A DNA stretch of 64,000 nt, taken from positions 1,522-65,521 of the forward strand of contig JABCPG020000005.1 of assembly GCA_013333195.2 (NCBI GenBank), given 5' to 3'. This stretch comes from Bacteroidia bacterium (GTDB lineage: Bacteria; Bacteroidota; Bacteroidia; Bacteroidales; CAJPTX01). The notes beneath the pieces are model-generated. The model did not search any database. It worked only from the letters and a program-made list of their open reading frames with translations, and was not told the DNA's origin. Below, piece after piece: positions 14,993-58,752 of the stretch. Positions within the stretch are counted from its first letter, which is position 1; each line of letters starts with the position of its first letter. Both the position numbers and the translations under genes were made by a program.

Positions 14993-15030
14993 CCCCAACC
15001 CCAAAAAGAGTAACGATAGGGAAGAAGAAT

Positions 15031-16470
15031 ATGATACGGACGTATAAGCAGCAAGCAACAAAGTGGGTAGCACTACTGATATTCCTGCTAATCAGCGCGC
15101 ACGCATTCATCCCGGCGGCGGCGCAAGAGAAAGGGAAAATAGGGGAACTCGTCACCTTTGAGGATGGGAGCAAGGGGGTGCTTATCCAGGTAGAACGCGA
15201 TGGGCAAAGCGGCTGGGCAATAGCATTAAGGAATGCAGGGACCTTTAGTTGGGCATCTCAGGCGACAGAAACAGCAACGAACGCGCTCAACAAAATCCTC
15301 ACGGAGAGGAGCGAGTCGAAACGTGCGCTTAACGATATGCTTCCCCTGCTGAGAGACACAGCGGGATACGCAGCTACCCAAGCCATTCGTGCGGCAGCAG
15401 GAGGAAATAGGGAGAGCTACCCAGCGGCATTCGCCGTAGACTTCGATCACGGCTGGTATCTACCGACTGCGGGGCAAATGTTCATCGTATATTCACTAGA
15501 ACCATTCATAAAAAAGGCGTTGGAGGATAATGGGGGAGAGGTGATCGCAGGGTCATACTGGACTAGCACACCATACAACGCACGGTGCGCATGGTATCTC
15601 GACGCGCAACTAGGGATATATGAGGATCCCAATGGAGACGGATACAAAACAAAACAATACTTCGTACGCGCCATGCGGCACTGGCAAGCTTCGAAGCCCG
15701 CCAGCACCTACACGCTCGCGTTCGACGGTAACGGCGCCACGGAGGGCGCGATGCAACCGCAAACCGTCAACGTCGGGGAATCCCTCACGCTGCCAAAGAA
15801 CACGTTCAAGCGCAGCGGCTTCGAATTCCTGGGGTGGAGCATGAGCAGCACCGCCACCGAGGCATCCTACACAGATGGGCAGGCCGGGGTAGACCTAGGC
15901 GGGGGAAAGGGCGAGGTTAAAACCCTCTACGCCGTGTGGAAGGCCACGGCTGCGCCCGCCAGCACCTACACGCTCGCGTTCGACGGCAACGGTGCCACGG
16001 AGGGCGCGATGCAACCGCAAACCGTCAACGTCGGGGAATCCCTCACGCTGCCAAAGAACGCGTTCAAGCGCAGCGGCTTCGAATTCCTGGGGTGGAGCAT
16101 GAGCAAAAGTGCATCAACCGCTTCATACACCGACGGGCAAGCCAACGTACTTATAGAAAGCTCGAAAGGCGCGGTTAAAACCCTTTACGCCGTATGGAAA
16201 AAAGGCCAAACATCAACCTCCATCGAGAGCGCACTTCTATCCTCAGCGCAGAGCTTGGTAAACCCGTTCCGCGACTGGCTAACAATCGTGCACCTCAACG
16301 CAGCCAATAGGATTGAAGTCTACAGCATCCTAGGAGAAAAGCTCTACGATAGGGAGTTACAGGGAGCGGAGCGAATGGAAATAGCAACCAGCGAATGGGA
16401 AAGCGGCTTGTATATCGTTAGGATACATGCGAAAGACGGAACGAAGGTTCTTCGAGTAGTAAAACGGTAG
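15031..16470 (+). CDS. T9SS-secreted protein: DUF1566-like domain, two Listeria-Bacteroides-type repeats and a Por C-terminal sorting domain
   Basis: It has a signal peptide and the DUF1566-like segment GWYLPTAGQMFIVYSL. An 86-aa repeat (TYTLAFDGNGATEGAMQPQTVNVGESLTLPKN.FKRSGFEFLGWS...YAVWK) occurs twice. The C-terminus ...IEVYSILGEKLYDRELQGAERMEIATSEWESGLYIVRIHAKDGTKVLRVVKR fits a T9SS CTD. Confidence 0.75.
   Translation: MIRTYKQQATKWVALLIFLLISAHAFIPAAAQEKGKIGELVTFEDGSKGVLIQVERDGQSGWAIALRNAGTFSWASQATETATNALNKILTERSESKRALNDMLPLLRDTAGYAATQAIRAAAGGNRESYPAAFAVDFDHGWYLPTAGQMFIVYSLEPFIKKALEDNGGEVIAGSYWTSTPYNARCAWYLDAQLGIYEDPNGDGYKTKQYFVRAMRHWQASKPASTYTLAFDGNGATEGAMQPQTVNVGESLTLPKNTFKRSGFEFLGWSMSSTATEASYTDGQAGVDLGGGKGEVKTLYAVWKATAAPASTYTLAFDGNGATEGAMQPQTVNVGESLTLPKNAFKRSGFEFLGWSMSKSASTASYTDGQANVLIESSKGAVKTLYAVWKKGQTSTSIESALLSSAQSLVNPFRDWLTIVHLNAANRIEVYSILGEKLYDRELQGAERMEIATSEWESGLYIVRIHAKDGTKVLRVVKR
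15696..16211 (+). repeat. Intragenic tandem duplication, period 258 nt, two copies
   Basis: The first roughly 153 nt of each copy (15696.. and 15954..) differ at only 3 positions by eye. The remainder of each unit is much more diverged. Confidence 0.85.
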
Positions 16471-16541: not shown

Positions 16542-19478
16542 CTACTCTTCTAGAGAAATTGCGAAGAACCCATGCTCCGCACGCCTCGAGAACTTACGGA
16601 AACAGGAACGTAACATCTGGGGCGTTATGCTCGTGAGTACGACTTCATAGCTATCAAGCTCATCAAACGTTGCGCCTTCTTCCACCGAATTAACGAGCCA
16701 ATCCCTCCAAGCGGTAACCGCGTAGGGGGTAAGCTCACGCCCCTTAGATGCTAGGAAAGCCTGCCTGTACCCATTCAACCTCTCGTAAGAAATCTCTTTC
16801 TTTGCTAAAGCCCGCAATGCCGCTTCCGACGCGCCACGCGCCTTGCTAAGTTGGCTAGCATCGCAATCACCATCAACGATCAATGCAAAGGTTTTCGAAC
16901 CCATCATGTCATAGCGGATGGAGACAAAAGGAGAATAAACTATTTGCTGCTCCATCCGGAGCGTACGCAACGCCTCGTCCTGCAACGCATCGCGCATGAG
17001 TTTCAAAAGAAGCGATCCTCGTAAACCTCCCTCAAACACATCGCCCCTCCAGAATGAAATGAATGTCGCCAACCCTTCTTTTGGCGATTCGAACGGTCGC
17101 TTCGGCTTCCACTTAATGGATTTTCCAGAATTCTCCGCCTCCTTATACCGTAAGTCAAAATTCTTTGCGAAGGTCGCAGCGATTGTATCCTCCCCCATAG
17201 GTCCAATGGCAATGATCTGCAGGCCCTCTCCAATAGTAAAAAGAGACTCGTAGTAACTACTCAACTTCTGAATATCCACCTGCTGCCACACATCTGCAGA
17301 TGGGTCGTCCACGCTAAATTTCGGGTCAACAAGGCGAGTGGTAAATGCGTTGATGCGCTGCGCAGGGAGCAGCGCACGCTTAGCAGCCACATCACGGCGC
17401 GCACCTCGAATGGACTCCATGCGCAGAGAATCGAACGCAACGGTGTCCCACGAAACATTTACTAACCTATCACGCAGCATACGCACAGCCAGGTCCAACC
17501 GTCGGCTAGGGCAAACCATCATAACACGGTGGGCTGCCGGCCCACTGATAAAAAGCTGAGAAATCCCTTCTTGGTAGAATATGCTATCCTGGGCAGAAAG
17601 CGGCAGCTGCCCGGCTATACTCAATTCGAAAGCGCTACCCAAAGCCTCTTGAACCGCGCGAGGATACAAAGAGGTATCCAGGAGCCCACCGCGCCACGAA
17701 GCCACTACGTAGACCGTACTGTCATCGGTATCCATTCGCTTCGCCAGAATGGGAATCCCGCTGTTAATCCGGTAAAGCGTAGCGTTAAGCGTTGGGAAAT
17801 GCTTAATACGGCTCGGCTCCGAATCTGGCAAAAGGGGATTTAAATAGCGGTTGGGAATGTTTATCTTTCTCCCTTCTCGCTGCTCCTCCCGATGAGATAG
17901 AACGGCCGAAACCGAAGAATCCGAAGCCATACGCTCCGCCTTCGCAATGGAAATCGCAAGTTGGTGGTTCTCCAAACTACCCCCTTCTACATCAGCCACT
18001 AGAGGCATACCCTGTGGCACAACGGCCTGCAGCATTCGGCGCCATGCCGTAGAATCCATCCTGCTTATAGTATCGCGAAGCCACGCCACCTCCAGTTCCG
18101 AGGCACCCCCCTCAACCTCCACAAGCGCTTCATCCACCATCCTGTCGGCAGCTTCAACCGCCAGAGTGGGTAAGGAAACCTGTTCAGCTATACTCAGAGC
18201 CTTATCCCGTAGCAGGAGAAAAAGCTTCGAATCGTTGCAATGGCGAGCAATCCCATAAACAACGCTCAGGGCGCGCAGCACAGCGGTATCAAGCCGTGCC
18301 GCGGCATGGTAGGATCCTTCCAGGCTAATGAATCCCTCGCGGTTAAGATACCAATCAACGCTAAAGCTCATTCTACTACCATGCAGATGGAGCTGGCTAT
18401 TGATAACCGAAGCGCAGGTCTGAATGCACACATTGCGCAACCAGTCGCCGCAAGAGGTCTGGACTCCGTACCTGTATGGCCAGTAAAGACTCACCCTACA
18501 AAGACTATCCTCCGCTACAGGCGTGGCTGAAAAGCTGGGTACATGCGTCAAAAAAATATCGAGATTCGGTTGCTCTACCAGCTCCCTCGGCGCAGGGATA
18601 TCCGCCAGCATCGCCTTCGCCAGCCGGTAGCACTCGGCTGTATCTATGGGGCCCGCCACGATTAGCGTCGCCGCACTCGGCGAATAGTGCCGTCGATAAA
18701 AATGGGCGAGACGCTGTTCGTCGATCCGCTGCACCCGCTCGTGCCGCCCGATTGGAAAACGGGAGTAAAGGGGATTTCCCGCTAACTTCGCCTTGCTCAA
18801 TGGGTCTGCTGAAGCAAAATCAGCAATTTCCCGAGCGATGACTCCCCTTTCGCGCTCCACATGCTGCCGTTGAAATTGCATTTCAAACATCCAATGGCGC
18901 ACAACCCGCAACGCTTGCAGCATGGCAGAATCATCGCCGGAAGGGATGGAAAAGGAATAAACCGTACGGTCATACCCAGTATACGCGTTGAAATCCGAGC
19001 CGTAACGGTTCCCATACCCTGTTAGCGCGCGCATAATCCACTCGGGAGCAAAGGCCATGTGCTCAATGAAATGCGCCACACCTTCATCTGCATCCGACTC
19101 GTGCGCAGACCCAACCCGCATTACCAAGCGCACCTCCGTTCGCTCTTGCACCCCATTCCGTGTTGGGTAAAGCGCAAGCGTAAACCCATTGGGCAACGTG
19201 TAGCTCTTACCTAACGGCGTAAGGGCAGATTCCGAACGCAAAGGCACCTCGCCAAAAACGTCCACAGGCCATAGGAGCAGGAATGAAATAGGCAGAAGGC
19301 TAAGCCTCCGTCGCACCCATAGCGCAAACACCAGTAGATTTACGCAAGATTTACAAGTGGCATTCATCAATCGTACACATAGTTTTAAATTACCGCGGAG
19401 GCAATGCGCATATACAGCGCAACGACCCTCGCAACCCTGCGCCGCGGGCAGCATTTCCATAAAATCCATCACCTCCAT
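16542..19478 (-). CDS. M16-family (insulinase/pitrilysin-like) zinc peptidase, double-length form
   Basis: It has the inverted zincin motif HFIEHMAF (HxxEH) near the N-terminus and about 940-978 aa spanning two M16 halves. The start is uncertain: the Met at 19367 (MNATCKS...) immediately precedes the signal-like hydrophobic segment. Confidence 0.85.
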   Translation of the reverse strand: MEVMDFMEMLPAAQGCEGRCAVYAHCLRGNLKLCVRLMNATCKSCVNLLVFALWVRRRLSLLPISFLLLWPVDVFGEVPLRSESALTPLGKSYTLPNGFTLALYPTRNGVQERTEVRLVMRVGSAHESDADEGVAHFIEHMAFAPEWIMRALTGYGNRYGSDFNAYTGYDRTVYSFSIPSGDDSAMLQALRVVRHWMFEMQFQRQHVERERGVIAREIADFASADPLSKAKLAGNPLYSRFPIGRHERVQRIDEQRLAHFYRRHYSPSAATLIVAGPIDTAECYRLAKAMLADIPAPRELVEQPNLDIFLTHVPSFSATPVAEDSLCRVSLYWPYRYGVQTSCGDWLRNVCIQTCASVINSQLHLHGSRMSFSVDWYLNREGFISLEGSYHAAARLDTAVLRALSVVYGIARHCNDSKLFLLLRDKALSIAEQVSLPTLAVEAADRMVDEALVEVEGGASELEVAWLRDTISRMDSTAWRRMLQAVVPQGMPLVADVEGGSLENHQLAISIAKAERMASDSSVSAVLSHREEQREGRKINIPNRYLNPLLPDSEPSRIKHFPTLNATLYRINSGIPILAKRMDTDDSTVYVVASWRGGLLDTSLYPRAVQEALGSAFELSIAGQLPLSAQDSIFYQEGISQLFISGPAAHRVMMVCPSRRLDLAVRMLRDRLVNVSWDTVAFDSLRMESIRGARRDVAAKRALLPAQRINAFTTRLVDPKFSVDDPSADVWQQVDIQKLSSYYESLFTIGEGLQIIAIGPMGEDTIAATFAKNFDLRYKEAENSGKSIKWKPKRPFESPKEGLATFISFWRGDVFEGGLRGSLLLKLMRDALQDEALRTLRMEQQIVYSPFVSIRYDMMGSKTFALIVDGDCDASQLSKARGASEAALRALAKKEISYERLNGYRQAFLASKGRELTPYAVTAWRDWLVNSVEEGATFDELDSYEVVLTSITPQMLRSCFRKFSRRAEHGFFAISLEE

Positions 19479-19744
19479 CAGGGCGCGAATGTCGGCATAA
19501 TCGGTGTGCTAGAACACTTTCGAAAACATCTTTCTCGATTGTCTCTCCCTACGAACACCCCATAAAGCTCAAAGTAAAAAGGAACTAACAGGGGGAACGG
19601 GTACAGATTTCCTACTAAACCGCTGTAAAAATATCACAACTATTGGGGGGGTGCGACAAATAGAAAATGTCGTTACTTCGCGGCAACATCTCTTAATAGA
19701 ATGTTCAAGTTCTTTTCATCAACGCGCATACCCCCTTTTATAAT

Positions 19745-22700
19745 GTGAAATCTTTACGTCGATACCTTCGGATATTCTTAGCGATGCAAGCCTGCGTGTT
19801 GGCATCGGTGTGCCTCTTACGGGCGCAGTATGTAACAGGCGTAGTGAAAGATGCCAAAGGTCCCGTTGAGGGTGCCTACATACGCTTCTCACCGCGCGGT
19901 GGTGCCACGGTGAGCGACCAGGATGGGCGATACAAGCTACGCGTACCTGAGAACCACGATTCGCTGCGATTAATATGCCAATGCATAGGGTATAGCACCC
20001 GCAACGTAGCGTACAACGGTGGGCTCAAAGTGGACTTCTTCCTCACTGAGGAATCAACGGACATCCAGCAGGTCGTGGTACGTTCAAAGGCCAACATCAA
20101 CGCCGTCGATGTGCGCACGCGCACCGGGAACGTAGAGAAGGTCAATCTGCAAACCGTGCAATCCAAGCCCGCATCTAATCTCGGGCAAGCATTGCAGGGG
20201 ATGATACCAGGCCTACAGGTAACCACGAAAGGCTCGCTCGGCACCCCCCCGGAAATACGGGTTCGCGGAACCTCCTCATTTCGAAGCGGCAACGCGGCCA
20301 ATCAACCGCTCTACGTGCTGGATGGGCAAATCATCTCGGCGGAAACGTTCCTCATGCTCAACCCGGAAGATTTAGGAGAGATAAAAATCCTTAAAGATGC
20401 TGTGGGCACCGCGCTGTACGGCATTCGCGCAGCCAACGGCGTGGTAGAAATCAGCAGCCAACGCTTCACAGGCGAGGAGCTACGGGTAAGCTACCGCGGG
20501 GAAGCGGGTGTTACGTTCCGAGGAAAACGCCCCGTGGAAATGATGGATAGCGAGGAAAAGTTAGAGCTTGAACGATTGCTCAAAGCAACCTCCGCCCCGG
20601 GCTACTTCTACAGCGAGGAGCGTATACGCAAGGAGTACCCTGGCGACCCCGATATTGAAAATAGAGTTGCAACCGGGCGGCGCATACTCGACTCACTCAG
20701 GAACGTACACACCGATTGGTACAGAGAGCTAGTACGGCCTAGCTACTACCACCGTCACACCCTATCGCTGCGCGGTGGCAAGGATCGAACCGCGTACAAC
20801 CTCTCCGCCGGATTCATGCAGCAGGGGGGACAACTCGATGGGAATAGCACGCTGCGCGGCACCATGCGCCTCGGCGTAGAGCAACGCTTCAATGAGAGCG
20901 CGGTGATGGCATTGACGGTAAGCGGAGGGTACGCCCGCGTAGAAACGCCATGGGGGAGCAATTACAACCCAATCGAAATGGTGTACAAGCTCAACCCGTA
21001 CGAGAGCAAAGACTCCCCCTCGCTTTGGTCCTACGGCAGAGGGCAGCGGTACAACGATCTCGTGGGGCAGTTTAAAAAGCAGGGGGAAACGAAGAATATC
21101 GGTGCATTCTCTAGCTTCAACTGGAGAATCGTGGGGGGGCTAACGCTTGACGCTACCTGCGGTCTAGATCTATCGCTGGATGAGAACCTACTCGTCACGC
21201 CTCCCACAGCCTACAGCGAAATCAGTAGCGGCGTAAGCCCGGAGCAGCGAGGCGCGCTGCAGCAGAGTAAAAGCGTCAACCTCAACGTCACCTCTGGGCT
21301 CCGCCTCGGCTACACCAACACGTGGGGCATCCATGAATTCACCGCGGGGGGTGATGTAGACTTCCACACGGATATGCGCGACGAGCTAGGCGTGAAGGGG
21401 TATGGGCTTTCAGGGAATATCATGTCCGCCGCTGCCATTGATAACTCGCTAACAGGCGCCAGACGCCCCTCTACGTACGCAACCAAATACACGCACCGCG
21501 ATATTGGCCTAGGGCTTTTGGTGGGATACACATTGCTGGGACAATACGATATCTTCGGCTCAGTGAAATTTGATGCCTCCTCGCTCTTACCCAAAGCGCA
21601 ACGCTGGAACCAAGCGTGGGCGGTAGGCATAGGCTGGGATATAAAGGGGTATCCCGTGGTTAAAAATCTCACGTGGCTCTCCACCCTCAAACTGCGTGCC
21701 TCCATGGGGTATACCGCAAACCTTAACGGCGTCTCAGCGGCAAGCACAATAAACACATTCACCTACGACAACACCACCTACGCCCACATCCGGCCCATGA
21801 CGCTCGAGGCGCTCGCAAACCTAGGGCTAAAGGCAGAGCAGAACGAAATCTACGACATCGGCCTCTCGCTAGGTTTCCCAAGAGTAACCCTCTCCGTATC
21901 GGCGTACCGCCGTATTACAAAGGAGGCCCTGCTCGACGTCCCCATCCCTCCAAGCCTCGGATTCTCCACGCAGCTACAAAATATCGGTTCGCTACGCAAC
22001 GAGGGGATCGAGCTAAACGCGCAAATCAACGCGGTAGATCTCGATAACTGGAGATTATCGTTTTCCGGCAACATGAGCTACAACCGTAGCAAAGTCCTAT
22101 ACCTCAATGGAAAACCACGCATCTACTCTTCGCTCGAGGCGGTGGTGCCCGACTACGAGGTTGGGCAACCCATTGATGGGCTCTGGGGCCTCGAATGCCT
22201 AGGCATCAATCCCCTGCATGGCTACCCCGTGTACAAGGACCATGAGGACCAAGAGCAGAATGTTTACCACACGTTCCTTCGCGAAGATTACATCTGGCTA
22301 GGGCACGCCACCCCCCCCATTTCCGGCGGGTTCTCCATCTCCTGCGGCTGGAAGAACGTATCGCTCGATTGCAACTTCTACTACTGCGCGGGGGCCAAAC
22401 GCATGATCTCGTACGCCTACGTGCGCGACGCCTCGAATGCCAATCAGAACGCGATAAAAAACCAGGTTCAAAACACCTGGTGGCAACTCGGCGACGAGGG
22501 AAAAATCTACCCAGACCCCAATATGCTCTCGTTAGGCTATGACAACGTGCGCAACGTGCCCAACACACGGACCGTACGTCGCACCGACTTCATCAGGCTC
22601 TCCGGCATCTCGCTCAGGTATCGCTTTGATGAACGGTTCCTTAACCTCATGCACAACGTGATTTCATATGGACACTTCGCGTTGCACGCAGCCAACCTCT

Positions 22701-22798
22701 TTACAATCACTCCATTCATGGGGGGCGACCCCGAAACGGGGAACCTCGTGGCCCCGCTAGCGCCCGTTCTCACCTTTAACCTATCTTTAAACTTCTAG
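19745..22798 (+). CDS. SusC/RagA-family TonB-dependent outer-membrane receptor
   Basis: 1017 aa with a GTG start. After the signal peptide comes a carboxypeptidase-regulatory-like domain (YVTGVVKDAKGPVEGAYIRF), then a plug region (LQGMIPGLQV, PLYVLDG, VEI) and an aromatic C-terminal residue (F). A SusD-like gene follows directly. Confidence 0.9.
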   Translation: MKSLRRYLRIFLAMQACVLASVCLLRAQYVTGVVKDAKGPVEGAYIRFSPRGGATVSDQDGRYKLRVPENHDSLRLICQCIGYSTRNVAYNGGLKVDFFLTEESTDIQQVVVRSKANINAVDVRTRTGNVEKVNLQTVQSKPASNLGQALQGMIPGLQVTTKGSLGTPPEIRVRGTSSFRSGNAANQPLYVLDGQIISAETFLMLNPEDLGEIKILKDAVGTALYGIRAANGVVEISSQRFTGEELRVSYRGEAGVTFRGKRPVEMMDSEEKLELERLLKATSAPGYFYSEERIRKEYPGDPDIENRVATGRRILDSLRNVHTDWYRELVRPSYYHRHTLSLRGGKDRTAYNLSAGFMQQGGQLDGNSTLRGTMRLGVEQRFNESAVMALTVSGGYARVETPWGSNYNPIEMVYKLNPYESKDSPSLWSYGRGQRYNDLVGQFKKQGETKNIGAFSSFNWRIVGGLTLDATCGLDLSLDENLLVTPPTAYSEISSGVSPEQRGALQQSKSVNLNVTSGLRLGYTNTWGIHEFTAGGDVDFHTDMRDELGVKGYGLSGNIMSAAAIDNSLTGARRPSTYATKYTHRDIGLGLLVGYTLLGQYDIFGSVKFDASSLLPKAQRWNQAWAVGIGWDIKGYPVVKNLTWLSTLKLRASMGYTANLNGVSAASTINTFTYDNTTYAHIRPMTLEALANLGLKAEQNEIYDIGLSLGFPRVTLSVSAYRRITKEALLDVPIPPSLGFSTQLQNIGSLRNEGIELNAQINAVDLDNWRLSFSGNMSYNRSKVLYLNGKPRIYSSLEAVVPDYEVGQPIDGLWGLECLGINPLHGYPVYKDHEDQEQNVYHTFLREDYIWLGHATPPISGGFSISCGWKNVSLDCNFYYCAGAKRMISYAYVRDASNANQNAIKNQVQNTWWQLGDEGKIYPDPNMLSLGYDNVRNVPNTRTVRRTDFIRLSGISLRYRFDERFLNLMHNVISYGHFALHAANLFTITPFMGGDPETGNLVAPLAPVLTFNLSLNF

Positions 22799-22800
22799 CC

Positions 22801-24246
22801 GTGCGAATCCTCAGAAAAATTGGACATCCGCTCCTACTCCTGCTGGCTGCCCTCCACGCAGGCTGCTCTCTCGACATCCCCATGGAGGATAAAGTGAGCG
22901 ACCCCAAGGCCATCTCTACCATCTCCACCATGCAAAGGGCCACCGCGGCCGCGTACTACTCCTACTCATGGCATAGCTACGACATCGTCTTTTCCATCCT
23001 CGCGGAGGAGTTCCAGCCCTCAACATGGCTTTCGCACCAGCCCGCTGACCGATTACGCTACCAGTGGGACGAGCGCAGCCTGCGCGATGAGGCCATCAAT
23101 CTCTGGACAGACCACTACCGAACCATCATGCTCTGCAACACCGTCCTCGAACGGGTGAAAGACGTCACAGCCTCCACCGGCGCGGAACGCTTGCAGCGTA
23201 ACGCCCTGCAAGGGAGCGTCATGCTACTCAAAGCGCGATGCTACCTACAACTGCTACAAATATTCGCCGCAGCACCCACAGGAGGCGACTTCTCCGGCGA
23301 GGGAATCATACTTCGCGACAAAGTGGTTTTCGAATTGCGACCGAGAAGCAGCGTAGAAAAATCGTTACGCACCATCGAAACGCTCATTTCAGAGGCGCTC
23401 GAACTTTTGAAAAACAACCCTGTAACCACCGAGGGGCAGGGCAGCTCCATCAACTGGCTCGACTACCACGCGGGGCTATTGCTACAGGCGCAAACCGCCC
23501 TATGGAAAAATGATTTCAACGGCGCTCTCAACGCCGCGAATGAACTGCTCAACCTAAAAGGGACTCTCATCGAAGGGAATGCAAAGGCGCGCTACGAGGC
23601 CATGTGGACAGCCAAAGGGGCCGGCGATGCCATCTACGCGTACGACCAAACCGACAAGCAACGCGGCGTACGCCTCTACATCAACGCCATACAATACGAC
23701 TCCGACAATGGCGACCTCTTCAACATCGCTGCCGGAACGGAGCTAGCGGCCAGCGACGTGCGCAAGCAGTTCTACGAAATACCATTCTTCATGCCAAACG
23801 GTGAGCAGGCGACGCTATGGGGAAAATACAACTACCTGAATCGGAATCGCATCGATTTCTTCCAAACCTACGACCTACGCGCCACGGAAGCCCTTTTCAT
23901 AAAGGGGGAATGCCTCGCGCAGCTAGGAAGGGAGCAGGAGGCCCACACCGAGCTAAACCGGTGGCTAAAAACCCTTAAAAGCCCGCCCCTAGATGCTTCC
24001 TTAACGGGCGACCCCTTGATACGCCAAATCCTACGCCTCAAAATGCAGGAATTTCGCGGCGAGGGCACCAGCTATTTCGACATCAAGCGGATGCACTGGC
24101 CCATAGCGCGCCTCCAAAGCAACGGGACCCCGGAGGGCAGCAAAATTGAAGCGTCCGACTTCCGCTGGGTATGGCCCATCCCAAGAACAGAGATACACGC
24201 CAATTCCGACTTGCGGCAGAACCCAGGCTGGGAGTCCGAAAGATAG
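22801..24246 (+). CDS. SusD/RagB-family outer-membrane lipoprotein
   Basis: 481 aa starting 2 nt after SusC. It has a lipobox (LHAGC) and TPR-like helical content; the size and position are typical of SusD partners. Confidence 0.85.
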   Translation: MRILRKIGHPLLLLLAALHAGCSLDIPMEDKVSDPKAISTISTMQRATAAAYYSYSWHSYDIVFSILAEEFQPSTWLSHQPADRLRYQWDERSLRDEAINLWTDHYRTIMLCNTVLERVKDVTASTGAERLQRNALQGSVMLLKARCYLQLLQIFAAAPTGGDFSGEGIILRDKVVFELRPRSSVEKSLRTIETLISEALELLKNNPVTTEGQGSSINWLDYHAGLLLQAQTALWKNDFNGALNAANELLNLKGTLIEGNAKARYEAMWTAKGAGDAIYAYDQTDKQRGVRLYINAIQYDSDNGDLFNIAAGTELAASDVRKQFYEIPFFMPNGEQATLWGKYNYLNRNRIDFFQTYDLRATEALFIKGECLAQLGREQEAHTELNRWLKTLKSPPLDASLTGDPLIRQILRLKMQEFRGEGTSYFDIKRMHWPIARLQSNGTPEGSKIEASDFRWVWPIPRTEIHANSDLRQNPGWESER

Positions 24247-24312
24247 GTGTAAACACAAACCGCTCCTTAACCCGCCACAAACCGAAATTTTTAAATAAGA
24301 GAGGGCCAAGCT

Positions 24313-25545
24313 ATGCGAAGAATACACACCCACCTCATCTCGATAACCCTACTCGCGTTCTGCCTATGCTCTGCGTGCAGGGAAGAAATCGATTATCGCG
24401 AATATACGGGTAGCAATGAGATTAAAGTTATCGCCGAGGAAACCGCTCTCACCCCCCAGCTTAACGATACGATTTCGGTAACCATCCTACGGGCCGTGGC
24501 GAAAGAAACGCAGGAACTAACCATTTCCGTAAACGATGACCCCGAGGGGTTCATCGAGTGCCCCACCGGCGTCTACTTTGAAGGTTCTGCACGCAGGACG
24601 ACATTTTATGTAACTCTAAAAAAGGGGATTACAGTCAGTAAAACTTTCTGGCCATCGCTGGCCATCGCGCTTCGCCCGCAGGGGAAGCCCTCAAAGCTAT
24701 ACCTAAGCGTCAGCAAGAGCAAACCCCAATATGCCCCCACAGAGGCGGAAAAGAACCTCATTGCCCTCTGGGAGAGTAGGGGTTACCCTCTCGGGAAGAT
24801 CCTGGGGAAACATCTACCGGTCGAACTCACCGTGAGCTGGCCCGCCAATGGGGGACTCGTGGACTTCAGGGACGCCGGGAGCAGCAGCTATAGGGGAGTG
24901 ACGATGCTCTCCCTGTCGCCGGTGGCAACGCAAGACTCCCTCGTGCTAAAATTCGATTGGAACGCGCTGGGACTCACCGAATTTTTCTATTTCGCCCTAC
25001 GTAAAATGACCATTGAGAACGATGAGTTCTGGCTAAGCCCCGGCGCAAACCCGCTCGTTGGAAAAGTGATGAAACTAATCGACTGGAATCGGCAATCGCA
25101 CGAGGAATTCGAATGCTCTCTCGATAGCGTGGCCATCGGCGCCAAGGATGCCAACGGCATCTCCAGGGTGAACACCATGCACGAAAATTTTAAAGACAAC
25201 ACGACCAACCCCGAGTATAACACCCCCTTCAACTTTCAGTACTCCGCCTGGGACCGCCTCCTGCACCTGATTCAGGCAGGCGATCCAACCGCCATCGAAT
25301 GCCAGGCCTCAATGGACACACCGTTCCCCAAACGCCACTTGAATACCGTCGACTTCCATCACTCCCGCAACCACGATCGGCTCCCCCCGTACGTGAGCGA
25401 ATACGACGACAAACCGCTACGGGAACAACGCGTATCCATCGACTGGAACACCGGCATCTTCTCGTTCGACATCCAAACGGGCCTCACCGACGTTACGAGC
25501 GACTACATTGACATCAAAGGGACCATCCAACTACCGTTAAAATAA
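24313..25545 (+). CDS. Hypothetical surface lipoprotein (third gene of the SusC/D unit)
   Basis: 410 aa with a lipoprotein signal (LLAFCLCSAC). Its position matches accessory surface-binding lipoproteins of Sus-like loci. No family recognised. Confidence 0.6.
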   Translation: MRRIHTHLISITLLAFCLCSACREEIDYREYTGSNEIKVIAEETALTPQLNDTISVTILRAVAKETQELTISVNDDPEGFIECPTGVYFEGSARRTTFYVTLKKGITVSKTFWPSLAIALRPQGKPSKLYLSVSKSKPQYAPTEAEKNLIALWESRGYPLGKILGKHLPVELTVSWPANGGLVDFRDAGSSSYRGVTMLSLSPVATQDSLVLKFDWNALGLTEFFYFALRKMTIENDEFWLSPGANPLVGKVMKLIDWNRQSHEEFECSLDSVAIGAKDANGISRVNTMHENFKDNTTNPEYNTPFNFQYSAWDRLLHLIQAGDPTAIECQASMDTPFPKRHLNTVDFHHSRNHDRLPPYVSEYDDKPLREQRVSIDWNTGIFSFDIQTGLTDVTSDYIDIKGTIQLPLK

Positions 25546-25694
25546 TCGAATCCAACGAGCCCCCCAGAGGCCATCGTCCAGAAAAGAAAAGTCTAACGTT
25601 TCAACAAAAAGCAACGGCTGAACGTTACAATTCGGTTGTGCCCTAGTCAACAGCCAACACTAACACACTAAAGAAGAGGACACAGAGTTTCATC

Positions 25695-28600
25695 GTGCTA
25701 ATGAATATGAAAAAGAAAAAAATCATTGCTATCTCCATAGCATGCCTCATCGCCGCCGGCGCGGTGGTTGCATGGCTTGCCTACCCGCGCCGGGTAGTGG
25801 TGGGATTCGCCAACACTCCAGAATTCATGTACAGCCGTATCGCGCAATCGGCCGACGCCGAGAACGTGGAAATCCGCAAGGTCAAAAACGTTAAGGAGTA
25901 CGCCGACTGCGACGCCGTATTCACCTTCGGCATGGGGCTGGACTGGGGCGAAGAGGAGAGGGCCGCCGTGCAAAAACTCATGGATAAGGGCCTGAAGCAC
26001 ATGACCCTAATGGCGCCGAATGCCGACAACAACATCTCCAACCTCGACTCGACGCAACAGTACACGTTCCTCGAATTCTTTGATAACGGCGGAACGGCGA
26101 ATTTCCGGAATGCGCTCTACTACGTACGCGAGAATGTACTAGGTAAGAAGCTTCGGAACGGCGCCGCCCTTGGCGAAGTTATCCGCTATGGTAGCGATGT
26201 GCTCTTCTCCAAAGATTCCGACGACCTCGCGTTCAACAGCGTCAAGGAGTACGAAGCCTATTACCGGGAGCACGGAATGAAGCCGGGCAAACCCAAAGTG
26301 GCAGTGTTCACCAGCATCATTAGCCCGTTCAACAGCGACAGGCAGTACCTCAACGAGATTCTACAAGGCCTTGAAAACGTTGGCTTCAACGTGTACGGCG
26401 TGAGCGCATGGACGCAAAAGCTTGAAATCTTGCAGGAAATCTCCCCGGACCTCGTGGTGGTGTTCCCCCACGGACGATTCGCCATGGGGAACTCGCAGGC
26501 CCTAATAGATTGGCTAAAGACCCGCAACATCCCCATGCTTGCGCCCCTAACGCTCACCACCCTACGCAGCGAATGGGAAAAAGACCCCAAAGGCATGGTG
26601 GGAGGCTTCTTGAGCCAGAGCGTGGCGGTGCCAGAACTCGACGGGGCCATCGAACCCTTCGCGCTCACCGCGCTGGAGGAGGAAAATGGGCTTCAGGTAT
26701 TTAAAACAATCCCTGGCCGTCTCGAGCAATTCTGCAATCTCGCAAAAAAGTACGTCGCCCTACAGAAAATGCCTAACAGCGAGAAAAAAGTCGCGATCTA
26801 CTACTACAAAGGCCCCGGGCAGAATAGCCTCGTCGCGCAGGGACTCGAAACCCTACCCTCGCTCTACAACACGCTCTTAAGCCTTCGCGAGGCAGGATAC
26901 AACGTCGCAGGGCTACCCGAAAACTTAGCAAAATTCAAAGAGGATGTCATGCAGCGCGGCGCCCTATACATGAGCTACGCCGAGGGAGCCCTGGGAAATT
27001 TCCTCACGAGCGGAATGCCCGCCTTCGTCCCCACAGACTCTCTAACAAAATGGATCGAAAAAACATTCCCCGCGCCCATCGTTGACAGCATACGCAGCCA
27101 CTACGGGAAAGAACCCGGCGTATACTACGCGTACGAACAGAATGGACAATCGGGCATCGGGGTCCCGCGCATCGAGTACGGCAACGTGGCCATCCTCCCG
27201 CAACTCGGCACCGGCGCAGGGGAGGTGGATTTCAACATGGTACACGGCTCCATCGCCGTGCCGAGCTATCCCTACATCGCCTCGTACCTATGGACTCGGA
27301 ACGCCTTTCATGCCGACGCGCTCATCCACTTCGGCACGCACGGCAGCCTAGAGTTCATTCCTGGTAAGCAAATCGCCCTGAGTAGCAACGACTTCTCCGA
27401 CAGGCTCGTCAACGACATCCCGCACATATACTACTACACAACCGCCAACGTGGGCGAAGCAATCATCGCGAAACGTCGGAGCTACGCGCAGCTCGTAAGC
27501 TACCTCGCCGTGCCTTTCATGGACACAGAGCTTCGAAACGACCTCGCGAAAATCAACGGCCTCATCGAGAAGTACCTCAGCAATAGCAAAGACGACGAAC
27601 AGCTAAGCCTAAAAATCAAGGCAGAAGTGCTTAGCGCCGGTTTTCACCGCGACCTAAAACTCGACAGCGTGGCAAGTAAACCCTACAGCCGCACGGACAT
27701 CCAGATAGTCGATAATTTCCTTAGCGAGCTGATTTACGCCAAAATCCCCGGAGGGATGTACACCACCGGCGTAAGCTTTAGCAATGATCGGATCATGCGC
27801 AGCGCAAGGTTGCTGAGCGTCGATCCCATCGCTTACGGGCTAAGCTACCTCGATCTCGCCCGCGGAAAAATTTCAAACGAACAGTATAAAAACGAAGCGT
27901 ACTTCCGCCACCACTACCTACCCATTGCCTCGCGCCTAGTGGAGCGACTCCAGCAGTCATCATCAATCGACGTGACGCAGGAAATGCAACGGCTGGGCGT
28001 AACGAACGCGGAGCTTCTCGCGCTCGAGCAGAACCAGCGCAAAATGCCAGCAGGCATGGCCGCCATGCAGCAGGCTATGGCTCGTATGGCGAAGAGCATG
28101 GCGAAAACCAATGGCGCCGCCCCGCACCCCACCGCGGCGACACAGCCCCCCCATGGGCCTAACGCCCACCCGGGCGCCATGCCTCCGCATGGGCAAATGG
28201 ACCAGACGCAGAAGCCCCAGGGGCACCCCGAAGCAACCACCGATGGGGCAACAGGAGCAACCCCGCCCTCCCCAGACTCCACGCATGGGGCCCAACGCCC
28301 CGCCACCCCGGCACACCCTCAAAAAGATCCTAGCGCAACCCCCGACGCGCAGAAGGCACAGGGACACCCGGGTATGCCCCCGCAGCACCACCCGACAAAC
28401 GGAGCGAGTACACACACCCAGCACTCCGGAACCGCAACGGACGGCGCCACAGGGGCAACTGCAACCAACCAGGACGCAGCGCGTAACCCCCAGCATGGTG
28501 CTACTCCTGCCCACCCGCAGAACGGAGGCAACGCCCCGCACGGCGCGCAAATGCCGAAAGGACACCCAAACACTCCCGCTGGCGCAAGCGCAATGCAGCA

Positions 28601-30386
28601 CCCGGGCGGTATGCCTCCGCATGGCGCCAAAGGGCAACAGGAAGCGGCGAATGCAAACGCCCAGGGCAACGCAGCCAATACCATAGGTGAAAAACAGCTC
28701 GAAGCCCTCGAAATGCTACGCGACGGCATCGCCAAGGTAAAGCACTACGAGCATATGCTCCGCGTGAGCCCCAAGATCGAGCTAACTTCACTTCAGAACG
28801 CGCTCAACGGAGGATACACGCTTCCATCCCCGGGTGGCGACTACATATCCGACCCGCAGGTTCTACCAACCGGGCGTAACCTGTACTCCATCAATCCGGA
28901 AAACACTCCCTCAGCAAAAGCGTGGGAAAGGGGAAAGGCTTTGGGAGACGAGCTTATAGCCGACTACCGTAGCCGGCACAACGATGCCTACCCTCGCAAG
29001 GTGAGCTTCACGCTCTGGAGCAGCAGCTTCATCGAGAGTGAGGGTACAACCATCGCTGAAATTTTCTACCTCCTCGGTGTGGAGCCCATCCGCGACCGGA
29101 TGAATCGCGTGCTCGACGTTCGTTTAATGGACGAGCAGGAGCTTGGGCGCCCCCGCATCGATGTGGTGGTGCAGACATCAGGGCAGCTGCGCGACATTGC
29201 CGCCTCCCGGCTATTCCTCATTCAGAAGGCCGTGCAGCTCGCGGCGGAAGCACCCAAAGGCCAATGGGGCAACGAGGTGGCGCAAGGCATTGCGGATGCC
29301 GAGAAAATGCTGCTCGAAAAGGGCCTAACGCCAGCAGCAGCCCGCTCGCTAAGCCAGGCGCGCGTATTCGGTGGCCTTAATGGGAGCTACGGCACCGGGA
29401 TACAACCCATGGTGGAGGCCGGCGACCGGTGGGAAGACCGCAGCGAAATCGCAAACGTCTACCTCCACAACATGGGGGCCATCTACGGCAGCAGCGAAGA
29501 GTGGGGAAAATTCACTGAGGGTGCCTTTGCCGCTGCGCTGCTAAACACCGATGCCGTGGTGCAACCGCGGCAGAGCAACACGTGGGGCGCGCTAAGCTTG
29601 GACCACGTCTACGAATTTATGGGTGGACTCACGCTGGCCGTTAGAGAGGTAACGGGCAAAGACCCGGAGGGTTACATGAGCGACCTGAGAAATCGACACC
29701 GCGCACGCACCCAAGAGCTGAAGCAGGCTGTAGGCGTCGAGGCGAGGACAACGATTCTGAACCCCGCCTACGTGCGAGAACATCTTAAGGAAAGCGCCGG
29801 GGCTGCCGATGCAATTGCGGAAACCATTCTCAACACCTACGCGTGGAACGTAATGAAGCCCAGCATTATCGACAAAGAGCTATGGGACGGCATCTACAGC
29901 ATGTATGTAGCCGACGATAAGAAGCTCGGGACCGTTGAATTCTTCACCCGTGAAAATCCCGCGGCGCTACAGGAATTTACGGCAGCCATGCTCGAAACCG
30001 TGCGCAAAGGCATGTGGAAGGCATCAGCCGAGCAGATTAAACAGATTAGCGAGCTGCACACGGCATCGGTGGCCGCGGCGGGCGCAGGCTGTAGCGGTAT
30101 GGTGTGCGACAACGCCAAACTTCGCGAATTCATCGCCCAGCAGCTGCCCGCGGAGAAGCGCGAAGCGTATAAAAAGGCAATCGCCTCCGTGCGGGAGCAG
30201 CAGGCGCTGACGAAAGAGCAGGAGGGCCGAGCCAAAGTGCTGACGAAAGAGAGCAAGGCCGAAACCCATGGCCAGACGGCAACGCAACGCGAGGAGAACA
30301 GCAACGCGCTGCTATGGGTAGTGCTCGCGTCTGTGGCCATCGTGCTGATTGCCGTTCTACTCGTAACGCGCAAGCGCAAAAAGTAA
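25695..30386 (+). CDS. CobN/Mg-chelatase-family protein (HmuS-like), membrane-tethered, with a His/Pro/Gln-rich insert
   Basis: About 1560 aa. CobN-type blocks lie on both sides of the insert (e.g. HFGTHGSLEFIPGK, VLPTGRNLYSINP, FTLWSSSFIESEGT, VVQPRQSNTWGALSLDHVYEFMGG). There is an N-terminal hydrophobic anchor and a C-terminal TM helix followed by RKRKK. The start could be the GTG at 25695 or the ATG at 25701 or 25707. Confidence 0.9.
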   Translation: MLMNMKKKKIIAISIACLIAAGAVVAWLAYPRRVVVGFANTPEFMYSRIAQSADAENVEIRKVKNVKEYADCDAVFTFGMGLDWGEEERAAVQKLMDKGLKHMTLMAPNADNNISNLDSTQQYTFLEFFDNGGTANFRNALYYVRENVLGKKLRNGAALGEVIRYGSDVLFSKDSDDLAFNSVKEYEAYYREHGMKPGKPKVAVFTSIISPFNSDRQYLNEILQGLENVGFNVYGVSAWTQKLEILQEISPDLVVVFPHGRFAMGNSQALIDWLKTRNIPMLAPLTLTTLRSEWEKDPKGMVGGFLSQSVAVPELDGAIEPFALTALEEENGLQVFKTIPGRLEQFCNLAKKYVALQKMPNSEKKVAIYYYKGPGQNSLVAQGLETLPSLYNTLLSLREAGYNVAGLPENLAKFKEDVMQRGALYMSYAEGALGNFLTSGMPAFVPTDSLTKWIEKTFPAPIVDSIRSHYGKEPGVYYAYEQNGQSGIGVPRIEYGNVAILPQLGTGAGEVDFNMVHGSIAVPSYPYIASYLWTRNAFHADALIHFGTHGSLEFIPGKQIALSSNDFSDRLVNDIPHIYYYTTANVGEAIIAKRRSYAQLVSYLAVPFMDTELRNDLAKINGLIEKYLSNSKDDEQLSLKIKAEVLSAGFHRDLKLDSVASKPYSRTDIQIVDNFLSELIYAKIPGGMYTTGVSFSNDRIMRSARLLSVDPIAYGLSYLDLARGKISNEQYKNEAYFRHHYLPIASRLVERLQQSSSIDVTQEMQRLGVTNAELLALEQNQRKMPAGMAAMQQAMARMAKSMAKTNGAAPHPTAATQPPHGPNAHPGAMPPHGQMDQTQKPQGHPEATTDGATGATPPSPDSTHGAQRPATPAHPQKDPSATPDAQKAQGHPGMPPQHHPTNGASTHTQHSGTATDGATGATATNQDAARNPQHGATPAHPQNGGNAPHGAQMPKGHPNTPAGASAMQHPGGMPPHGAKGQQEAANANAQGNAANTIGEKQLEALEMLRDGIAKVKHYEHMLRVSPKIELTSLQNALNGGYTLPSPGGDYISDPQVLPTGRNLYSINPENTPSAKAWERGKALGDELIADYRSRHNDAYPRKVSFTLWSSSFIESEGTTIAEIFYLLGVEPIRDRMNRVLDVRLMDEQELGRPRIDVVVQTSGQLRDIAASRLFLIQKAVQLAAEAPKGQWGNEVAQGIADAEKMLLEKGLTPAAARSLSQARVFGGLNGSYGTGIQPMVEAGDRWEDRSEIANVYLHNMGAIYGSSEEWGKFTEGAFAAALLNTDAVVQPRQSNTWGALSLDHVYEFMGGLTLAVREVTGKDPEGYMSDLRNRHRARTQELKQAVGVEARTTILNPAYVREHLKESAGAADAIAETILNTYAWNVMKPSIIDKELWDGIYSMYVADDKKLGTVEFFTRENPAALQEFTAAMLETVRKGMWKASAEQIKQISELHTASVAAAGAGCSGMVCDNAKLREFIAQQLPAEKREAYKKAIASVREQQALTKEQEGRAKVLTKESKAETHGQTATQREENSNALLWVVLASVAIVLIAVLLVTRKRKK

Positions 30387-30391
30387 GTTTA

Positions 30392-31111
30392 ATGGCGGAC
30401 CTACTGCTCTCACTAAGCCTTTTGGGCGTGGTATCTCTCGTTTTCCGTGAGGTATATCGGAGGGAGTGGCTTCGGGTGGCGCATGGGGTGGTCTACGCGG
30501 CTTTGCTGTGGATTGCCCACCCCATGCTCCTCGAAACGAGCAAAAAAACGCTCGACATCTACCTCTCCAGCGCCGGCGTGCAGACCAACCTACTACTGCT
30601 CCTTAGCGTCGACTTAATACTCCACGCGGGCAGCATAGCAAACTGGCATTTAAGGGAAGCGCACCGCTCGGGAGCATTACGCCCCGCGTGGGACCTCGCG
30701 GAGGGCGTAATGCGCGTTGCGTGCCGCATCGCGTACTACATCCCCCCGCTCTGGCCCGCAGCCTCCCTGGTGTACATTCGGCTAGCGCTGCTTTATGCCT
30801 GGCCCGGGGTATCCTTCGAGGGGGTAACAGTGGGCCTCATGGCCGTAGCCGTTGCGCTTAGTAGCCTCGCGCCCTGGCCGCTCCGCGGATTGAAGGCACG
30901 ACCAGAAATATCGTACGCCCCCATGGCTTCGGCCGTGCTGGCTTTTCTCCTAGCGCAGCTCTTTGCGCCCGGCGCAATGGCCATCGCGCCCAACCACAGC
31001 TATTTCGATAAGACGCAACTCCTAGGGAGCCTACTTTTCCTAGGCGCATTAGTCCCAATCGTGGCAGCCGCGTACTGGCTACGTATGCGTAACCGTTCTG
31101 AAAATAAATAG
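30392..31111 (+). CDS. Polytopic membrane protein (position equivalent to HmuT)
   Basis: The start was trimmed to the ATG at 30392, 5 nt after the CobN stop. The product is 239 aa with about 6 hydrophobic helices. No family recognised. Confidence 0.6.
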   Translation: MADLLLSLSLLGVVSLVFREVYRREWLRVAHGVVYAALLWIAHPMLLETSKKTLDIYLSSAGVQTNLLLLLSVDLILHAGSIANWHLREAHRSGALRPAWDLAEGVMRVACRIAYYIPPLWPAASLVYIRLALLYAWPGVSFEGVTVGLMAVAVALSSLAPWPLRGLKARPEISYAPMASAVLAFLLAQLFAPGAMAIAPNHSYFDKTQLLGSLLFLGALVPIVAAAYWLRMRNRSENK

Positions 31112-31121
31112 AAAGAAAAAT

Positions 31122-31760
31122 ATGGATTTCGTATCAAATGTCATGTTCTGGATCTCCAACAGCCTGCTCGTCCCGGTGATGGTAGGGCTCGTGTTACTGT
31201 TCTTACTCTCTCTCGTTATGATTGGGAGCCTGCTGGCGGAGCAACAGAAGCAACGGCAAAAAAAAATCAAGTACGAACACCTGTTCCAAGAGCTGGGTAG
31301 CAGCAGTAAATTGCTGCACCTAAGGCAGTCGCTCAGCAATGCAGCCAAAAAGCAAGCCTTTGAGGGGGTAGCCCTCGCGCTCTTCGACGCATCCCCAGCG
31401 CAACGCGACCTGCTAATCGGCGATTTCGAACTGCGCCAGCAAAAAAGCAACACGAAGGGGAAACTCCTCGCGAAGTTCGGCCCTATACTCGGGCTTATGG
31501 GAACGCTTATCCCCATGGGGCCGGCGCTGGTGGACCTAAGCACAGGGGAGGTGGCAAGCATGGCGTACAACATGCAGGTGGCCTTCGCAACCACCGTTCT
31601 CGGCATGTTTTCCGCAGCTGTGGGGTACTTTTACCTTCAACTCGTGACTCGCTACCAACACCAGGATCTCCTCTGGCTGGATTACCTCAACGAAAGTCTA
31701 ACAGAGCACATACCAACGGCAGAGCAGAGCAAAGAGGCAAGCAACACCCTAGCACAGTAA
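31122..31760 (+). CDS. MotA/TolQ/ExbB-family proton-channel protein
   Basis: 212 aa with an N-terminal TM and two C-terminal TM segments. The segment FGPILGLMGTLIPMGPAL matches the ExbB/TolQ G-x-x-GT-V/I-x-GM type motif. Confidence 0.8.
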   Translation: MDFVSNVMFWISNSLLVPVMVGLVLLFLLSLVMIGSLLAEQQKQRQKKIKYEHLFQELGSSSKLLHLRQSLSNAAKKQAFEGVALALFDASPAQRDLLIGDFELRQQKSNTKGKLLAKFGPILGLMGTLIPMGPALVDLSTGEVASMAYNMQVAFATTVLGMFSAAVGYFYLQLVTRYQHQDLLWLDYLNESLTEHIPTAEQSKEASNTLAQ

Positions 31761-31769
31761 AAAAACATC

Positions 31770-32102
31770 ATGAGAAAGGGAAGAAGAAACTTTTCATACG
31801 AGGAGGAAGATCCTTCATCGTTGCTATCCAACCTGTTCGACGTGGCGATGGTCTTCGCGGTAGCCCTCATGGTGGCGCTCGTCACCAAATTTAACATGAC
31901 TGAGGTGTTTAGCAAAGAAGACTACACGATCGTGAAGAACCCCGGCAAAGATAACATGGAAATCCTCGTGAAGAAGGGAGAAAAGATAGAACGCTACCAG
32001 GCGAAGGACCAAAATTCCACGGAGGGCAAAAGCAAAGGGAAACGTGTGGGAATTGCCTACGAGCTTGAAAATGGCGAGATTATATACGTCCCTGAAGAGT
32101 AG
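31770..32102 (+). CDS. Small single-TM ExbD-like / DUF2149-like protein
   Basis: 110 aa with one TM (LLSNLFDVAMVFAVALMVALV, like the ExbD N-terminus) and a short soluble tail. It lies immediately downstream of the MotA/ExbB-like gene. Confidence 0.6.
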   Translation: MRKGRRNFSYEEEDPSSLLSNLFDVAMVFAVALMVALVTKFNMTEVFSKEDYTIVKNPGKDNMEILVKKGEKIERYQAKDQNSTEGKSKGKRVGIAYELENGEIIYVPEE

Positions 32103-32125
32103 GGCTAACGCATTCTGCAAAACGT

Positions 32126-32157
32126 AATCGGCTAGCGGATCGCTAGCCGATTTTTTA
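32126..32157 (+). terminator. Rho-independent terminator closing the CobN-ExbB-like operon
   Basis: A perfect 12-bp stem, AATCGGCTAGCG (32126-32137) with CGCTAGCCGATT (32141-32152), has a GAT loop and is followed by a T-run. Confidence 0.85.
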
Positions 32158-35399: not shown

Positions 35400-35447
35400 T
35401 GAAAATATTTATTTCGTGAAAAGCCGTTGCGAAGTTACAGAAAATCG

Positions 35448-35455
35448 TATATTTG
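35448..35455 (+). promoter_or_regulatory. Bacteroidota -7 promoter box (TAnnTTTG)
   Basis: TATATTTG lies 26 nt upstream of the ATG at 35481. Confidence 0.5.
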
Positions 35456-35480
35456 CCGACCCAAGAATAGAGTTATAGCC

Positions 35481-58717: not shown

Positions 58718-58752
58718 CAGCATCAGTGAAAATCAACGATTTTACAGTAAAT

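Follow-up and report, generated by a model that had tools for sequence, protein, structure and literature searches.

The haem dechelation step in gut and oral Bacteroidota was settled only in 2025 with HmuS, which converts haem to protoporphyrin IX and Fe(II) in an NADH-dependent reaction (PMC12583661). HmuS is encoded in the hmuYRSTUV operon of Porphyromonas gingivalis and Bacteroides thetaiotaomicron, and the known entry routes for haem consist of the HmuY/HmuR pair only. In P. gingivalis, the CbiK-like IhtB/FetB is a haem-binding lipoprotein proposed to be a reverse ferrochelatase/haem dechelatase (PMC12094164). In Proteobacteria, iron piracy is carried out by TonB-dependent transporters that bring in proteins and are paired with PqqL/FusC-type M16 proteases; this is the published role of the FusA/FusC ferredoxin uptake system and of YddB/PqqL (PMC6793856, PMC6071955); the published survey took in Proteobacteria only (PMC6793856). 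Here we describe a locus in a 64,000-nucleotide (nt) stretch of contig JABCPG020000005.1 (hereafter the window, 64 kb), which is an hmu locus whose haemophore and receptor genes are replaced by a protease-associated SusCD-type importer. HmuS and the hmuSTUV unit are already known; the locus is a natural variant in which HmuY/HmuR gave way to another outer-membrane machine bringing its own protease. Its features are as follows.

19745-22798, plus strand: susC, SusC/RagA TonB-dependent outer-membrane transporter, 1017 amino acids (aa)
22801-24246, plus strand: susD, SusD/RagB-family surface lipoprotein, 481 aa
24313-25545, plus strand: DUF4929 lipoprotein gene, 410 aa
25546-25694: gap between the DUF4929 gene and hmuS, 149 nt
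25695-30386, plus strand: hmuS, CobN/ChlH superfamily, 1563 aa
28041-28724, plus strand: low-complexity insertion of HmuS, residues ~783-1010
30392-31111, plus strand: hmuT, polytopic membrane protein, 239 aa from the second ATG (reading frame open from 30314, 265 aa)
31122-31760, plus strand: hmuU, MotA/TolQ/ExbB-family proton-channel protein, 212 aa
31770-32102, plus strand: hmuV, DUF2149 protein with a single transmembrane helix, 110 aa
32126-32152, plus strand: intrinsic terminator, 12-bp stem (7 G-C pairs), 3-nt loop, then TTTTATT
16542-19478, minus strand: M16 zinc peptidase gene (PF00675 and PF05193), divergent from susC
19479-19744: intergenic region separating susC from the divergent M16 gene, presumed promoter region

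The open reading frame (ORF) calls reproduced seven plus-strand genes at 19745-32102, and together with the profile scans they returned the co-directional order, the spacing, the terminator at 32126 and the family labels that the initial annotation had given. The intergenic gaps are 2, 66, 149, 5, 10 and 9 nt when the fifth gene starts at 30392. To judge from the sequence, the seven ORFs are real, conserved genes rather than chance ORFs. The locus is flanked by the divergent M16 gene on one side and by polA on the other.

The 1563-aa protein matched the cryo-EM structure of B. thetaiotaomicron HmuS (PDB 9d26) with 1295 bits (E = 0), compared with ~350 bits for ChlH structures and 312 bits for CobN. 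In B. thetaiotaomicron numbering, the HmuS family is marked by Met79 and His254 at the haem site, by the essential catalytic His538 and, within domain IV, by a low-complexity insertion rich in methionine (PMC12583661). In the alignment, the equivalents of Met79, His254 and His538 are kept in the window protein, within TFGMGL, FPHGR and HFGTHGSLEF, respectively. Its N- and C-terminal segments are hydrophobic, and membrane anchoring is predicted. At the position of the methionine-rich insertion lies a segment of ~228 residues containing 13 Met, 18 His and 33 Pro, which is the longest among 16 HmuS proteins (147-163 aa in the closest relatives) and more His/Pro-rich than in the 15 others. The GC content climbs to 0.61 across the stretch coding for this insertion, and no significant tandem repeat was found in its DNA. 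These data indicate that the protein is an HmuS orthologue with predicted haem dechelatase activity.

The genes behind hmuS are in line with this assignment. The product of the fifth gene (239 or 265 aa) has no Pfam match, but it is named HmuT here because it shares 39-41% identity with the product of the gene after hmuS in two canonical hmuYRSTUV operons (L022 and L023); within the clade described below the identity is 63-72%. HmuU matched PF01618 (MotA_ExbB, 1e-8) and is 56-57% identical to HmuU of the canonical operons, and HmuV matched PF09919 (DUF2149, 114 bits, 5e-33) with 76-77% identity to its canonical counterpart. By homology, the last four genes are therefore a true hmuSTUV unit, as the initial annotation had suspected. 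It had also supposed that the ExbB/ExbD-like pair might drive the chelatase backwards. The published role of HmuU/V is powering import (PMC12583661), and current literature, in which dechelation is NADH-dependent, gives that idea no backing (PMC12583661). Compared with the hmuYRSTUV operon, the window locus is alike in the order hmuS-T-U-V, the short gaps, the hallmark residues of HmuS and the position of the insertion, but differs in having no hmuY or hmuR, in carrying the trio of susC, susD and the DUF4929 gene plus the divergent M16 gene instead, and in an insertion that is His/Pro-rich rather than mainly Met. Neither hmuY nor hmuR was detected by tblastn at the locus or anywhere in the window, and no protein of the locus matched PF14064 (HmuY).

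The front end of the locus resembles peptide rather than glycan importers. SusC scored 514 bits against TIGR04056 (cutoff 368) and contains plug, barrel and CarboxypepD_reg domains. Among solved structures, RagA of P. gingivalis, a peptide importer, comes closest to it (6sli; 2e-64, 221 bits, full length); the structures of other SusC homologues, which we take to be glycan transporters, scored 58-152 bits. SusD, which follows susC after a 2-nt gap, contains PF14322 and PF07980, and in the PDB it matched distant SusD-superfamily structures only, with no specific similarity to RagB. No carbohydrate-active enzyme, glycoside hydrolase or glycan-sensing regulator was found in or beside the locus. 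Because SusC is closest to RagA and carbohydrate-active enzymes are lacking, the front end is, as far as homology tells, a protease-equipped importer of the peptide or protein type and not a recruited glycan importer; a polysaccharide utilisation locus was rejected on the same grounds, there being neither a glycoside hydrolase nor a regulator. The initial annotation had described a glycan-type SusC/SusD pair with a lipoprotein in place of HmuY/HmuR. The replacement holds at this locus within the clade, the nearest relatives outside of which keep hmuY-hmuR, but the glycan-type label does not. RagAB is likewise a SusC/SusD-type pair without carbohydrate-active enzymes; the window differs from it by a SusD that is not specifically RagB-like and by adding the DUF4929 lipoprotein and a dedicated M16 protease.

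The DUF4929 protein matched PF16283 with 141 bits (6.5e-41), and its lipidated cysteine is Cys22. In an AlphaFold2 model (pLDDT 77) it consists of an N-terminal immunoglobulin-like (Ig-like) domain and an alpha/beta domain. The family is small, as a search of 1.84 billion representatives gave 187 clusters at E<=1e-10, and the only invariant candidate ligand residues are Cys22 and Tyr398. As a separate observation, giant proteins (1800-6500 aa; e.g. P0225, P0230, P0231 and P0252) contain the Ig-like domain (residues ~30-140) in 10-30 copies; since it recurs in these proteins, it is a widely reused repeat module, apart from the family-specific C-terminal domain.

The M16 protein is of the long (~920-980 aa) PqqL/FusC type, with the zinc motif HFIEH (HxxEH) at residue 136. 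Its closest solved relatives are Escherichia coli PqqL (6ofs/6oft, E 1e-27) and 6b03/6b05/6brs, presumably Pectobacterium FusC. The listed ORF begins ~37-65 codons before the homologues start aligning, and translation probably starts at the Met at ~19367, which would lengthen the divergent intergenic region to ~377 nt. By analogy, the protease is presumed to be periplasmic. Among 22 related loci, the M16 orthologue adjoins the SusC/SusD/DUF4929 trio in 18, and on this gene order the M16 gene and the trio are parts of one conserved cassette; M16 is a constant partner of the trio that was absent from the gene set of the initial annotation. With FusA/FusC and YddB/PqqL the window shares a TonB-dependent transporter beside a ~100-kDa single-chain M16 protease, although its transporter is of the SusC/RagA type with SusD and DUF4929 rather than of the FusA/YddB type, and neither a FusB-like TonB nor an ATP-binding cassette transporter is present at the locus.

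We examined the neighbourhoods of DUF4929 homologues by three contig look-ups, a one-genome-per-species scan and tblastn with the window proteins. A co-directional SusC-SusD-DUF4929-M16-ChaN-like cassette was found in Bacteroides (B. faecis L009, L010 and L011), in Hoylesella/Prevotella (L012-L015, L017 and L020) and in a metagenome contig (L003). In L018 and L019 the order is SusC-SusD-M16-ChaN, with DUF4929 as a separate convergent copy ~3 kb off, and Segatella salivae (L016) has a lone DUF4929 gene only. SusC proteins of the cassettes are 41-45% identical to that of the window. The wider lineage of the window has no ChaN-like gene in the cassette, and its M16 gene is inverted so that it points away from susC. 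Thus the window agrees with the Bacteroides/Prevotellaceae cassette in that SusC, SusD, DUF4929 and M16 are orthologous and adjacent, and differs from it in the inverted M16 gene, the missing ChaN-like gene and the hmuSTUV genes after DUF4929.

The cassette core also exists without nearby hmuS in the sister lineage L001/L007, where M16(-)/SusC/SusD/DUF4929 is followed by unrelated genes, in Prevotellaceae loci and in a metagenome-assembled genome (MAG) of Flavobacteriales, so the cassette is independent of hmuSTUV. Judging by these neighbourhoods, the trio is part of a pre-existing cassette in Bacteroides, Prevotellaceae and one Flavobacteriales MAG, whose constant partner is M16 and not hmuS. 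Therefore the earlier suggestion of a glycan-type Sus importer freshly recruited for a tetrapyrrole or metal complex did not hold. In the literature searched, no paper mentioning DUF4929 was found, and no relevant one pairing SusD with hmuS or linking ChaN, SusC and M16; the SusC/SusD/DUF4929/M16/ChaN cassette appears to be undescribed.

Several neighbours of the cassette in other taxa belong to haem- or chelatase-related families. The gene ending the cassette in Bacteroides and Prevotellaceae is ChaN-like (PF04187), and its product is related to the haem-binding ChaN of Campylobacter jejuni (2g5g, E 2e-6). In Hoylesella (4615-5511 in L012 and 4607-5500 in L014), susC is preceded, at a distance of 14 nt, by a gene for a 298-aa CbiX/CbiK-like class II chelatase with a signal peptide; decayed fragments of it were seen in a Prevotella MAG (5214-5498 in L017), and a gene end in L020 at the edge of the locus. 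No CbiX/CbiK-like gene was found in the window. IhtAB/FetB of P. gingivalis resembles these loci in principle, in that a receptor goes together with a chelatase-family protein working in reverse, and the Hoylesella cassette has its CbiX/CbiK-like gene, but the dechelatase of the window is of the class I HmuS type. In B. faecis-type genomes (L009, L026 and L028), the cassette is divergent to a complete calycin-hmuY-hmuR-hmuS... (hmuYRSTUV) operon ~2 kb away. In other Bacteroides (L031, L033, L066 and L074) the cassette is absent at the same site and the cation-efflux (CDF) gene abuts the Asp-Al_Ex permease gene; because it is present or absent precisely between these two genes, the five-gene cassette is a self-contained insertion or deletion. 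Taken with the window, the cassette is juxtaposed with (de)chelatase or hmu genes three independent times, which in our own judgement is unlikely by chance since the genes span a few kb of multi-Mb genomes. The tetrapyrrole link drawn by the initial annotation thus gained backing from the ChaN-like, CbiX-like and neighbouring hmu genes of other taxa, though the cassette also occurs without hmuS.

The fused order M16(-)/SusC/SusD/DUF4929/hmuSTUV was found in four species-level lineages. It is present in loci of the window's own species (L024 and L048, 99-100%), in L005/L006 (HmuS identity 76-80%) and in L021 (74%); in L104 (HmuS 74%) the contig begins inside susC, so that SusC-SusD-DUF4929-HmuS-HmuT-HmuU are visible and the places expected for M16 and hmuV fall outside the sequence. 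Across these lineages the identity of DUF4929 goes down to 45-61%, and the gap between its gene and hmuS is 51-149 nt (51-96 nt in the relatives of the window) and holds no terminator. In L021 the downstream flank carries DUF389, Crp, enolase and methyl-accepting chemotaxis protein (MCP) genes in place of polA. As the eight-gene block is intact there despite the different flank and a DUF4929 identity of 45%, it has outlived rearrangement. The nearest HmuS proteins outside the clade (51-64%; L022, L023 and L105) have hmuY-hmuR upstream. Since the sister lineage L001/L007 has the cassette without hmuS, the fusion is a derived, clade-specific state.

We then assessed how rare this arrangement is among 80 hmuS loci from a metagenome scan, counting the 66 with at least 2.5 kb of upstream sequence. 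Directly upstream of hmuS, 57 of the 66 carry an hmuR-type receptor gene (52 of these also hmuY), and the SusC/SusD/DUF4929 trio was found in 2, both from the window's own species. The remaining 7 have neither hmuR nor the trio, and six of them represent a stand-alone Bacteroides hmuSTUV subtype without hmuYR, seen at 8659-21973 of L103 and also in L056, L064, L070, L071, L098 and L100. In this subtype HmuS is ~1360-1395 aa long with a short insertion, a hemerythrin-LuxR regulator lies upstream, and downstream, genes for a TonB-dependent receptor, a ferric-reductase-like membrane protein, a 449-aa protein and a ChaN-like protein form a convergent operon; no riboswitch was found in L103. As stand-alone hmuSTUV occurs without an adjacent receptor gene, hmuSTUV can presumably be fed by receptors encoded elsewhere. 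The supplements of PMC10100974 give no count of hmuSTUV-only operons. By the six-gene hmuYRSTUV criterion of PMC12583661 the window locus would not be listed, which reflects a conservative selection of a reference set by its authors and not a biochemical requirement. Two variants of canonical hmu operons were also seen. In L023 (4719-9976) the hmuY-hmuR pair is duplicated in tandem, and in L035 and L036 (~14830-15380) an HmuY-like gene stands between hmuS and hmuU instead of upstream.

On these comparisons, we give somewhat better than even chances to the proposal that the locus imports a haem-bearing peptide or protein, which is then subjected to proteolysis and dechelation. The locus would comprise two modules, the M16 gene with the susC-susD-DUF4929 cassette core as module A, and hmuSTUV, placed head-to-tail behind it, as module B, which would have lost its own hmuY and hmuR at the locus in this clade. 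At the cell surface, SusD and the DUF4929 lipoprotein would pick up a peptide or a small protein carrying haem, or possibly haem alone, and the RagA-like SusC would import the captured substrate in a TonB-dependent manner. The M16 protease would degrade the polypeptide in the periplasm, and membrane-anchored HmuS would then remove Fe(II), leaving protoporphyrin IX, with HmuT, HmuU and HmuV acting as in canonical hmu operons. The nature of the substrate, transcription of the two modules as one unit and any functional hand-over from one to the other are inferred.

Other observations bear on this proposal, several of them against it. The haem-receptor motifs FRAP and NPNL are not in SusC, which is a weak test, as two true HmuR sequences are also without exact matches. 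A Foldseek search of the DUF4929 model against the PDB matched a generic Ig-like domain only, with no whole-protein match; homology of DUF4929 to HmuY was rejected, as hhalign against the HmuY profile gave 18% probability over the signal peptide only; and conservation within the family revealed no conserved His or Met ligands. The ChaN-like gene, which the window's clade lacks, can be taken only as soft evidence for haem, because PF04187 belongs to the Tiki superfamily and proteases are found there too. With respect to regulation, no classical Fur box (>=11/19 matches) was found in the two intergenic regions of the window or their equivalents in the clade, and no regulatory motif shared by the two modules was found. 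The Bacteroides -7 motif TAnnTTTG has no exact match in the window and none in the DUF4929-hmuS gaps; upstream of susC, L021 has an exact match and L005/L006 have near-matches. The 149-nt gap contains no plus-strand terminator and no stable RNA structure (z = 0.44), and it could hold an internal promoter. The iron-stimulon tables of B. thetaiotaomicron show iron regulation of the cassette neither present nor absent, and the strain behind them may not carry the cassette at the corresponding site. Finally, the cassettes without nearby hmuS and the hmuSTUV units without hmuYR count against the proposal, and neither module strictly needs the other.

Mere adjacency of the two modules is the main alternative, favoured by the occurrence of each module without the other: a RagAB-like importer of peptides or proteins, serving nutrition or taking another protein substrate, would stand beside an hmuSTUV unit fed by a receptor encoded elsewhere, and the order would be kept by the close kinship of the four lineages. 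The closeness of SusC to the peptide importer RagA and the lack of haem-related similarity in DUF4929 fit this explanation, as do the possible promoter in the gap and the lack of a shared iron or haem regulatory element among those found. In contrast, it leaves aside the persistence of the block in L021 with its rearranged downstream flank and diverged DUF4929, the ties that the cassette has, in three independent arrangements, to hmu genes or genes of chelatase families and, in most taxa, to a ChaN-like gene, and the loss of hmuY-hmuR exactly at the place of the trio. We regard mere adjacency as the less probable explanation, though one to be taken seriously. If it applies, the locus is merely a receptor-less hmu operon beside a peptide importer.

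Much less probable is another tetrapyrrole or metal complex as the substrate, for instance a corrinoid or a porphyrin with a metal other than iron, as at the BtuS-type loci of Bacteroides fragilis with B12 riboswitches. Hmu-like operons with CobN-like paralogues and without hmuY are reported behind cobalamin riboswitches (PMC10100974), the HmuS insertion of the window is unusually rich in His and Pro, and the Hoylesella CbiX-like partner comes from a cobalt/iron chelatase family. However, unlike the BtuS-type loci with their cobalamin riboswitch upstream, the window gave no Rfam riboswitch match at the gathering threshold, and the leader regions (19300-25800) gave none, cobalamin included, even at E<=5. 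Moreover, Met79, His254 and the catalytic His538 are kept in HmuS, and its closest relatives outside the clade lie in canonical hmuY-containing operons. That the 1563-aa protein is a biosynthetic CobN or ChlH/BchH subunit, as its PF02514 (CobN-Mg_chel) match of 902 bits and the public label 'cobaltochelatase subunit CobN' of its homologues could suggest, is effectively refuted, since all nine NCBIfam CobN/BchH equivalogs score it below cutoff (e.g. 603 vs 1248), the HmuS structure matches it far better than CobN and ChlH do, no cobS/cobT or chlI/chlD partner genes are in the window, the membrane anchors and the insertion are HmuS features, and hmuTUV follows the gene; clustering with true cobaltochelatases next to cobS/cobT, which the initial annotation had named as an outcome that would refute its own reading, was not seen.

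Extending the proposal of haem-protein import from this locus to the cassette at large is more tentative. The cassette with its ChaN-like, CbiX-like or hmuSTUV add-ons may be for Bacteroidota what the Fus and PqqL-YddB systems are for Proteobacteria, importing a whole small haem protein or a haem peptide from which a dedicated periplasmic M16 protease would free the cofactor for a dechelatase (HmuS in the window, a CbiX-like protein in Hoylesella) to take the iron; we consider this possible, with the odds somewhat against it. If true, no earlier SusCD system would be dedicated to pirating a cofactor rather than to glycan or peptide uptake, protease-associated import would extend from Proteobacteria to SusCD-type transporters, and a role could be assigned to DUF4929 in Bacteroides and Prevotella relatives that are common in the gut and mouth. 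The same importer machine is present in cultivable Bacteroides, Hoylesella, Segatella and Prevotella, beside other haem- or chelatase-family genes.

The best genome match of the window is an 'uncultured Bacteroidia' MAG. The remaining content of the window is housekeeping and includes GldB and a protein with a type IX secretion system tail, on account of which the host belongs to Bacteroidota. Directly after polA, at 35427-36959 on the plus strand, lies a gene for a 510-aa fusion of an adenylate/guanylate cyclase catalytic domain with an HD domain, which is also present in L005. MCPs are unusual in Bacteroidota; the window encodes three MCP signalling-domain proteins (3542-5272 and 6270-8000 on the plus strand and 12112-13902 on the minus strand), two of which are exactly 576 aa long, and L021 also has one MCP gene near its copy of the locus. 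Toward the end of the window (58001-64000), the GC content falls from ~0.53 to 0.46 and the AT skew reaches -0.36 in the last 2 kb, unlike the remaining window.

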